Part shown: in pieces, positions 29,579 to 31,411 of the stretch
Numbering within the stretch: the first letter of the stretch is position 1
How the letters are laid out: each line of letters begins with the position of its first letter
From: Escherichia coli
GTDB taxonomy: Bacteria; Pseudomonadota; Gammaproteobacteria; Enterobacterales; Enterobacteriaceae
Reading direction: 5' to 3' (one strand)
Assembly (NCBI RefSeq): GCF_003334385.1
Contig: NZ_QOWN01000007.1
Length of the DNA: 64,000 bases
Notes under the pieces: generated by a model
The model's database searches: none
Seen by the model: only the letters and a program-made list of their open reading frames with translations
Told to the model about the DNA's origin: nothing
Translations under genes and position numbers: made by a program

Positions 29579-31411
29579 ATGCGATATATAGCAGGCATTG
29601 ATATCGGCAACTCATCAACAGAGGTTGCGCTGGCAACGCTCAGTGCAACTGGAGAGTTGTCGTTCGTGAGTAGCGCCCTGGCGGAAACCACCGGAATCAA
29701 AGGTACGTTGCGTAACGTCCATGGTATTCAGGAGGCGCTCGCACAGGCAACGAAAAAAGTCGGCATCAATGTTAGCGATATTTCGCTTATTCGTATCAAC
29801 GAAGCAACTCCGGTCATTGGTGATGTGGCGATGGAAACCATCACTGAAACTATCATCACCGAATCAACCATGATCGGTCACAACCCGAAAACTCCGGGCG
29901 GAGTGGGGCTGGGCGTAGGGCTCACCATCACTCCGCAAGAGTTATTAACACGCCCGGCGGACACACCTTACATCCTGGTGGTGTCATCGGCATTTGATTT
30001 TGCCGATATCGCGACGATGATAAACGCCTCCGTACGCGCCGGATATCAGCTGACTGGCGTTATTCTGCAACGCGACGATGGCGTACTGGTCAATAACCGC
30101 CTGGAAATTCCTTTACCTATTGTGGATGAAGTCCTCTACATCGATCGTATTCCGCTCGGCATGCTGGCAGCAATTGAAGTTGCCGTTCCCGGGAAAGTTA
30201 TCGAAACCCTGTCTAACCCGTATGGGATTGCCACCGTATTCGCCCTCAATGCTGAAGAGACTAAAAATATTGTTCCTGTCGCGCGGGCGCTAATCGGCAA
30301 CCGTTCAGCAGTGGTAGTGAAAACGCCCTCTGGCGACGTTAAAGCCCGTTCGATACCCGCCGGAAATATCGAACTGCTTTCTGCCGGGCGCACAACGCGT
30401 GTTGATGTAGCTGCTGGTGCCGATGCCATTATGAAAGCGGTCGGTGAGTGCCCAAAACTGGAAAACGTGACGGGAGAACCAGGCACCAACATCGGCGGAA
30501 TGCTGGAACATGTTCGCCAGACCATGGCGGAACTGACCAACAAACCCAGCAACGAAATTTTTATTCAGGATTTGCTGGCGATAGATACCTCTGTCCCCGT
30601 CAGCGTAACCGGTGGTCTGGCAGGTTAATTTTCACTGGAACAGGCTGTGGGTATTGCCTCTATGGTGAAATCCGACCGTCTGCAAATGGCGATGATCGCC
30701 AGTGAAATTAAGCAAAAACTGCATGTTGATGTTCAGGTCGGAGGCGCAGAAGCAGAAGCCGCCATTCAGGGGGCCTTGACTACCCCTGGAACCACACGTC
30801 CACTGGCAATTCTGGACTTAGGTGCAGGCTCTACCGATGCCTCCATCATCAATCAGAGTGGGGAAATCGTTGCCACTCACCTTGCGGGAGCGGGCGACAT
30901 GGTAACGATGATTATCGCTCGTGAGCTGGGCTTAAATGATCGTTATCTGGCAGAAGAAATCAAAAAATACCCGTTGGCAAAAGTAGAAAGCCTGTTCCAT
31001 TTACGCCATGAAGACGGAAGCGTTCAGTTCTTCCCTACTCCGCTGTCCCCTCATGTATTTGCCCGCGTTTGTGTGGTGAAACCTGACGAACTGGTGCCTA
31101 TTCCCGGCGATTTAACACTGGAAAAAGTACGTGCTGTTCGCCGCAGTGCGAAAGAGCGCGTCTTCGTAACCAATGCCCTGCGCGCGCTACGTCAGGTAAG
31201 TCCAGGCGGAAATATTCGCGATATTCCGTTCGTCGTTCTGGTGGGCGGTTCTTCCCTGGATTTCGAAGTCCCGCAGTTAGTCACCGATGCATTGGCGCAT
31301 TATCGATTGGTCGCCGGACGGGGGAATATCCGTGGTAGTGAAGGCCCGCGCAATGCGGTAGCTACCGGGCTACTGATTTCCTGGCACAGGGAGTTGGCTC
31401 ATGGAAAGTAA
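29579..31411 (+). pseudogene. pduG: Diol dehydratase reactivase large subunit, interrupted by an in-frame TAA at 30626-30628 (fragments 29579-30628 and 30647-31411 share one frame)
   Basis: Both fragments match PduG; the stop falls where the intact protein reads GGLAG-E-FSLEQAVGIASMVK (GAA to TAA). Confidence 0.75.

Follow-up and report, generated by a model that had tools for sequence, protein, structure and literature searches.

The closest described counterparts of the gene considered here are DdrA, the large subunit of the diol dehydratase-reactivating factor of Klebsiella oxytoca (PDB 2D0O/2D0P), PduG of Salmonella enterica and GdrA, the alpha subunit of glycerol dehydratase reactivase (PDB 1NBW). 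In such reactivases, ATP hydrolysis by the alpha subunit frees the beta subunit from the swiveling domain, and through a swap of subunits the damaged cobalamin on the dehydratase can be exchanged (PMC7674605). DdrA and the Salmonella PduG share with the Escherichia coli locus described below both a domain order, in which a swiveling domain is followed by an ATPase-like domain, and the placement of the gene between pduE and pduH. The conceptual full-length E. coli protein aligns with DdrA over residues 1-609, at about 88% identity and in the same numbering, and is homologous to GdrA over residues 2-601, with the Glu of the GGMAGE motif kept; GdrA differs in that it is intact, is encoded in a dha/gdr operon and serves another partner enzyme. 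In contrast to DdrA and the Salmonella PduG, the E. coli frame is broken at codon 350, and its native start yields the first 349 residues.

Loss of pduG has precedents in other enterobacteria. Salmonella Gallinarum 287/91 has lost pduG and pduO, and an independent pdu loss is known in Typhi; the loss of pdu and cbi in host-restricted Salmonella has been interpreted as a sign that selection on anaerobic metabolism in the gut was relaxed (PMC3768742). These serovars represent another species with other lesions, and their losses lie within a genome-wide pseudogene load, whereas the present case is known at the level of the locus. A nearer precedent is a pduG pseudogene of a Shiga-toxin E. coli (STEC) lineage, in which the same gene of the same species is broken 31 bases upstream of the site studied here, giving a 342-aa N-terminal fragment and the same 254-aa downstream open reading frame (ORF). 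There, one base is missing from a CCCC run (corresponding to 30592-30595 of our sequence; L018-L022), unlike the substitution described below. The lineage is widespread (229 index blocks, including the complete genomes CP027325, CP027445 and CP027675, with strains 2013C-4830 and 2013C-3492 among the carriers), and RefSeq/PGAP annotates both pduG and pduB of these genomes as frameshifted pseudogenes. Another run shows a 23-bp pduG deletion at 30563-30585. Pseudogenes of pduG are thus already known, and the allele reported here is another member of this class. As separate observations on the STEC genomes, the pduB frameshift is accompanied by a deletion of about 21 bp in pduJ, while a hexanucleotide (TCCGGC) repeat in pduC, at the equivalent of 27471, varies in copy number (L019, L021), so that the PduC proteins of genomes that are close relatives range from 532 to 562 aa.

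Our analysis concerns a 64,000-nucleotide stretch of an E. coli chromosome (hereafter the window, to which all coordinates refer), positions 18751-43412 of which are collinear with the pdu island of many E. coli genomes, in the order cobTSU - riboswitch - pocR - pduF / pduABCDEGHJKLMNOPQSTUV. The closest complete genome is that of the porcine strain ETEC1734, with 14 differing positions between 6752 and 43500. The components of the island that bear on the argument are:

19715..23055, - strand: cobalamin riboswitch, CbiG-like remnant and cobU-cobS-cobT; cbi genes absent
23144..25070, - strand: regulator gene pocR and diffusion facilitator gene pduF, both transcribed away from pduA; from the annotation of collinear loci
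25582..40113, + strand: pdu operon from pduA to pduV, aligned to ETEC1734 with no indel
29579..30625, + strand: pduG 5' part, codons 1-349; TIGR04491 positions 1-347, Pfam PF18427 and PF08841
30626-30628, + strand: premature stop TAA (ochre), next base T; ancestral codon GAA, Glu350
30629..31411, + strand: pduG 3' part, codons 351-610 plus the natural stop; TIGR04491 positions 356-599
31401..31751, + strand: pduH, reactivase small subunit, its start overlapping the natural pduG end by 11 nt

Single-frame translation of pduG (29579-31411, + strand) gives 610 codons with one internal stop, at codon 350; in the frame set by the ATG at 29579 the local codons read gca ggt TAA ttt tca ctg. The ORF list accordingly holds two entries in a shared frame, 29579..30628 (349 aa, ATG start) and 30647..31411 (254 aa, GTG start). 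The N-terminal half matches positions 1-347 of the NCBIfam equivalog TIGR04491 (PduG) with 517.7 bits and the C-terminal half positions 356-599 with 412.1 bits, each above the curated cut-off of 400 for this model. Since the halves cover adjoining stretches of TIGR04491, the two ORFs are adjacent parts of a single gene; chance is not the question with one stop codon, and what counts, homology to either side of it, is unambiguous. The pduG of strain 190 differs from that of the window at 2 of 1833 bases, a synonymous C>T at 30400 (R274) and the G>T at 30626, and pduG of ETEC1734 likewise carries G at the latter position; within codon 350 (Glu350 GAA to TAA) this G>T is the sole difference from the two strains. 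The uninterrupted frame of about 610 codons that marks the PduG family is therefore lacking in the window, and the conceptual protein spans the PduG/DdrA models (TIGR04491, PF18427 and PF08841) with the 3' part showing no changes of its own relative to intact alleles. As in other nonsense pseudogenes, a point change relative to intact orthologues creates the stop, and the lesion is reproducible in independent data (see below).

The first-pass annotation had described an in-frame TAA at this place, splitting pduG into 349-aa and 254-aa ORFs that both match PduG, with a glutamate GAA in the intact protein. The sequence, the frame translation, the ORF list and the TIGR04491 matches on either side bear out the split, and the comparison with related strains, which it had suggested, confirms the glutamate: strain 190 and ETEC1734 have G at 30626, and a single G>T separates the alleles. 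These observations are best explained by a heritable G>T nonsense mutation that made pduG, encoding the large (alpha) subunit of the PduGH diol dehydratase reactivase, a recent pseudogene in a lineage close to ETEC1734, a reading to which we assign a probability of roughly 0.85.

In the conceptual full-length protein, Pfam assigns residues 93-254 to the swiveling domain (PF18427) and residues 275-601 to the ATPase-like DDR domain (PF08841). The stop falls at about position 76 of this 328-position domain, with some 75 domain residues upstream. The 349-residue fragment retains the N-terminal strand of the ATPase fold, with the DIGNSST motif (residues 7-13), and the swiveling domain; DLGAGSTD (413-420) and VLVGGSS are both encoded past the stop. 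We take these three to be the phosphate-1, phosphate-2 and adenosine motifs, respectively, of the actin/Hsp70-like fold. The split gene accordingly does not supply the two nucleotide-binding halves of the ATPase fold on one polypeptide. The lost residue is itself conserved: Glu350 is found in K. oxytoca DdrA (PDB 2D0O/2D0P; GGLAGEFSLEQAVG), and the matching Glu in GdrA (PDB 1NBW; GGMAGECAMENAVG) lies within GGMAGE.

In mechanistic terms, translation from the ATG at 29579 ends after residue 349, and the product would keep the phosphate-1 motif together with the swiveling domain, which in homologues binds the small subunit. Lost with residues 350-610 would be the greater part of the actin/Hsp70-like ATPase fold, and with it the nucleotide-binding motifs DLGAGSTD and GGSS. 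A fragment so reduced, with half of its nucleotide-binding fold gone, is expected to have no activity and to be incapable of an ATP-dependent swap of damaged cobalamin for adenosylcobalamin on PduCDE. Diol dehydratase that has been inactivated or loaded with non-adenosylated cobalamin would presumably stay unregenerated, and the B12-dependent pathway for 1,2-propanediol would be expected to suffer a strong defect despite the otherwise intact pdu genes. The truncated reactivase predicted by the first-pass annotation from the replacement of GAA by TAA is thus supported by the sequence comparison, the two TIGR04491 halves and the DdrA/GdrA alignment. A search of the open-access literature for a published pduG-deletion phenotype found PduG there only as a cargo marker. 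In work by Walter and colleagues from 1997, pduG mutants reportedly fail on propanediol aerobically with vitamin B12.

That the allele is real can be judged from public sequence data. A 61-base query with the stop at its centre was compared with 5,426 complete RefSeq E. coli genomes. The stretch is matched in 587 of them, all at 98.4%, that is, with exactly one mismatch each, and in every complete genome inspected the mismatch is a G at 30626; the exact TAA stretch occurs in 0 of the 587. The TAA therefore does not belong to pduG as such but is a lesion of derived origin, and the Glu350 TAA allele is rare. Its absence from complete RefSeq E. coli genomes is also what would be seen if the true base were G and pduG intact, a substitution being the simplest kind of sequencing or assembly error, and the first-pass annotation had held that the stop could equally be such an error. 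That view is not borne out. The independent SRA run SRR7819145 (L003), for which Logan used another assembly pipeline, agrees with the window at every one of the 21,050 bases compared, the T included. The exact 349-residue product is present in the public (NCBI) protein collection and is found on 22 contigs. The codons GGT TAA TTT can be read directly in six retrievable loci (L002-L007), and 13 further places are collapsed as similar to these; beyond SRR7819145, the five other displayed loci and the 13 collapsed ones carry the T on related but distinct sequences. The total comes to about 19 public contigs, some 18 of them in addition to SRR7819145. Three other loci (L008-L010) were dropped as candidate carriers, being wild-type contigs that merely end at 30626/30627. 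The identity over 21,050 bases together with the other carriers practically excludes a one-off sequencing or assembly error, and the different haplotypes exclude the re-sequencing of one faulty template. We thus regard error as very unlikely and the TAA as, in all probability, a genuine inherited allele. A literature search for the Glu350-to-TAA pduG allele found no published description of it.

As an observation apart from this, assembly breaks cluster in a stretch of about 70 bp (30563-30631), as seen in L008-L010 and L014-L017, and gaps of N stand at 30588-30631 in three metagenome scaffolds from ENA. This clustering perhaps reflects several alleles co-occurring in mixed samples.

The identical TAA occurs on three local haplotypes: group A, consisting of the window and L003; group B, consisting of L002, L004, L005 and L007, which differs from A at about 173 of 21,050 sites; and L006. 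Group B lies only 5-10 changes from the O27:H7 strain B4103-1, which has GAA. L006 is a mosaic that is B-like in pduH-J, A-like in pduP-S and private in pduD. On the face of it, presence on three haplotypes is not obviously what would be expected of a short-lived neutral or deleterious lesion. It could be taken to mean that switching the reactivase off is advantageous in some niche, for example through less propionaldehyde or a smaller drain on corrinoid and ATP, and that the same G>T arose or spread repeatedly. Two or more further pduG lesions, of independent origin, are situated no more than 65 bp away, and the window lineage has two private amino-acid changes in PduA and PduC, both of which could likewise speak for a selected loss. 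However, the sites distinguishing A from B that lie nearest to the stop are at 27122 and 31119, leaving 4.0 kb with no informative site, and recombination could have replaced as much as 4 kb here without any further trace. The flanking SNPs would thus be compatible alike with a single origin followed by recombination and with recurrent G>T, the interval 27122-31119 being uninformative. With this region of the chromosome clearly mosaic, a single origin with short-tract recombination or hitch-hiking suffices without selection, and recombination would adequately explain the three haplotypes. Further, the clustering of lesions is biased, as they were found by looking up the same 254-aa downstream ORF, and the allele is absent from the 587 complete genomes. 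An advantageous loss is accordingly unlikely in our estimation, and we retain the reading of a recent nonsense pseudogene that needs no selective benefit.

Several carriers show further damage in the pdu operon. L002 has a second nonsense change, pduN E76*, again G>T (L002 14266, equivalent to 33844 of the window); L005 has a 1-bp deletion in pduH (at the equivalent of 31570), and L006 a 1-bp deletion in the pduG 3' part (at the equivalent of 31195). Since Logan assembles automatically, some of these may be errors of assembly. Such additional lesions are expected of a pathway no longer under selection, and they fit a decay following loss of function.

Whether the stop might be bypassed bears on two other readings. 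The candidate restart sites are:

30647..30649, + strand: GTG, the nearest in-frame start codon past the stop, at a distance of 18 nt; within a predicted stem
30662..30664, + strand: in-frame ATG, Met of MVKSD, 33 nt downstream; within a predicted stem

The first-pass annotation had put the MVKSD methionine at 30659-30661, which is incorrect, as these bases are tct (Ser) and the ATG is at 30662-30664. With such starts available, the locus could conceivably encode a working split gene, in which the 349-aa piece and a restarted piece of about 250 aa assemble with PduH into an at least partly active reactivase. Restart after nonsense codons is known in E. coli from lacI and from the T4 rIIB restart mutants, the 3' part is undamaged in the window and the allele persists on three haplotypes. 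As the 3' part shows no further change in the window lineage, selection acting on it is conceivable. Against this, the anti-Shine-Dalgarno pairing amounts to -3.3 kcal/mol for the GTG at 30647 and -4.6 kcal/mol for the ATG at 30662, as compared to -4.9 to -8.9 kcal/mol for nine genuine pdu starts, and both codons fall within stems of an RNA fold that is predicted to be stable locally (-31.5 kcal/mol, z = -2.96). Internal restart at either codon is thus predicted to be possible only at low efficiency. The restarted C-terminal fragment may be made in a small amount; it would lack Glu350 and, with the GTG start, at least the six residues that follow, and it would need to reassemble with its partner across a break inside the ATPase-like domain. 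Among the intact lineages such a split is absent (0 of the 587 complete genomes), and some carriers have further lost the 3' part or other pdu genes. Taken together, we consider a functional two-piece reactivase distinctly improbable.

Programmed recoding, by read-through or insertion of a non-standard amino acid at the TAA, would find a point in its favor in the same RNA fold, which spans the site. Part of this fold, however, arises from the mutation itself, which pairs with a downstream A, and the fold has no known counterpart. The stop is conserved in no orthologue, and the homologues have Glu. UAA is recognised by both release factors, and no stop context is known to terminate more efficiently in E. 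coli than UAA followed by U; UAA is not known to encode selenocysteine or pyrrolysine. A search of the 64-kb window for a suppressor tRNA found no tRNA genes in it. Read-through of the TAA-T is therefore judged unlikely, and programmed recoding has a next to negligible probability. The TAA-T context, the weak Shine-Dalgarno pairing and the position of the restart codons in stems together argue against rescue, leaving the nonsense pseudogene as our preferred reading.

The stop may also be felt downstream. As the pduH start overlaps the natural end of pduG, translation of PduH may be partly coupled to that of pduG, and it may hence be made less efficiently when this coupling is lost. A Rho loading tract, which might bring about transcriptional polarity, was sought in the 783 nt left untranslated, and no clear C-rich, G-poor stretch was found there (C/G = 0.89).

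The remainder of the operon points to a recent event. Direct translation of the frames from pduA to pduL shows an internal stop only in pduG, and the gene order runs pduC-D-E, pduG, pduH (a Dehydratase_MU-like small subunit) and then the shell genes. The changes private to the window lineage within the pdu genes are PduA Y35N (25684) and PduC A528T (28275), at both of which every compared locus except L003 has the other allele, the synonymous changes in PduC R468 (28095) and PduG R274 (30400), and the stop (30626). With the rest of the operon intact, the inactivation of pduG fits a recent loss.

The cobalamin genes of the island bear on the role of the reactivase. A cobalamin riboswitch (22881-23055, - strand) is followed by a 168-aa ORF (22228-22731, - strand) and then by cobUST; the ORF matches cobalt-precorrin 5A hydrolase (CbiG) over only the first 125 of 351 model positions. 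The riboswitch is now predicted to control this CbiG remnant and salvage genes. Since the island holds only cobUST and the CbiG-like remnant, the strains depend on external corrinoids; given this dependence and the established biochemistry of the reactivases, the removal of non-adenosylated cobalamin by the reactivase should matter most when corrinoids are supplied from outside.

Other features of the window are recorded here in their own right. Two overlapping ORFs, 2652-4778 (- strand, 708 aa) and 4771-8775 (- strand, 1334 aa), have no NCBIfam or PADLOC match, and the 708-aa ORF has no Pfam match even at E<=10; the pair lies between the C-terminal part of an Rhs core (129-2243, + strand) and a tRNA-Asn remnant, and ETEC1734 has the same unit, annotated as hypothetical. 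The remnant is a 67-bp match (9221-9287) to the 3' end and flank of tRNA-Asn. It is followed at 9295-18565 by an island of about 9 kb with PTS, hexulose-phosphate and sugar isomerase genes, which is present in ETEC1734 and missing from strain 190, where tRNA-Asn abuts ldtA. ETEC1734 (L011) has frameshifts in an RpiB/LacA-family isomerase gene (8524) and in yefM (43972), and the window is intact at the corresponding positions 15275 and 50723. From 43554 onward (dacD to gnd) the identity to ETEC1734 falls abruptly, from about 99.96% to about 98%, and 43500-64000 is at most 98% identical to any of the 5,426 complete E. coli genomes; position 43554 resembles the junction of a recombination event, past which the his/wzz/ugd-proximal haplotype is an unusual one. 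Rfam matches to the enterobacterial small RNAs STnc230 (24119-24202, + strand, between pocR and pduF) and STnc240 (48392-48466, - strand) were also noted.

For annotation, our observations imply that the window has one pduG pseudogene with an internal stop rather than two genes. For the scoring of phenotypes, carriers of the allele are probably defective in B12-dependent use of 1,2-propanediol despite a complete-looking operon, which is of relevance wherever the presence of pdu serves as a marker of gut fitness or pathotype. A more far-reaching proposal, that the Glu350-to-TAA change is found on three haplotypes through repeated selection, and not hitch-hiking, in niches such as the animal gut, seems to us quite unlikely. 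Were it true, the reactivase would be either shut off or down-tuned, through low-level restart, into a two-piece enzyme, and adaptive loss would have struck pduG repeatedly within E. coli. Otherwise, this locus is one more case of point-mutational decay in an accessory catabolic operon.
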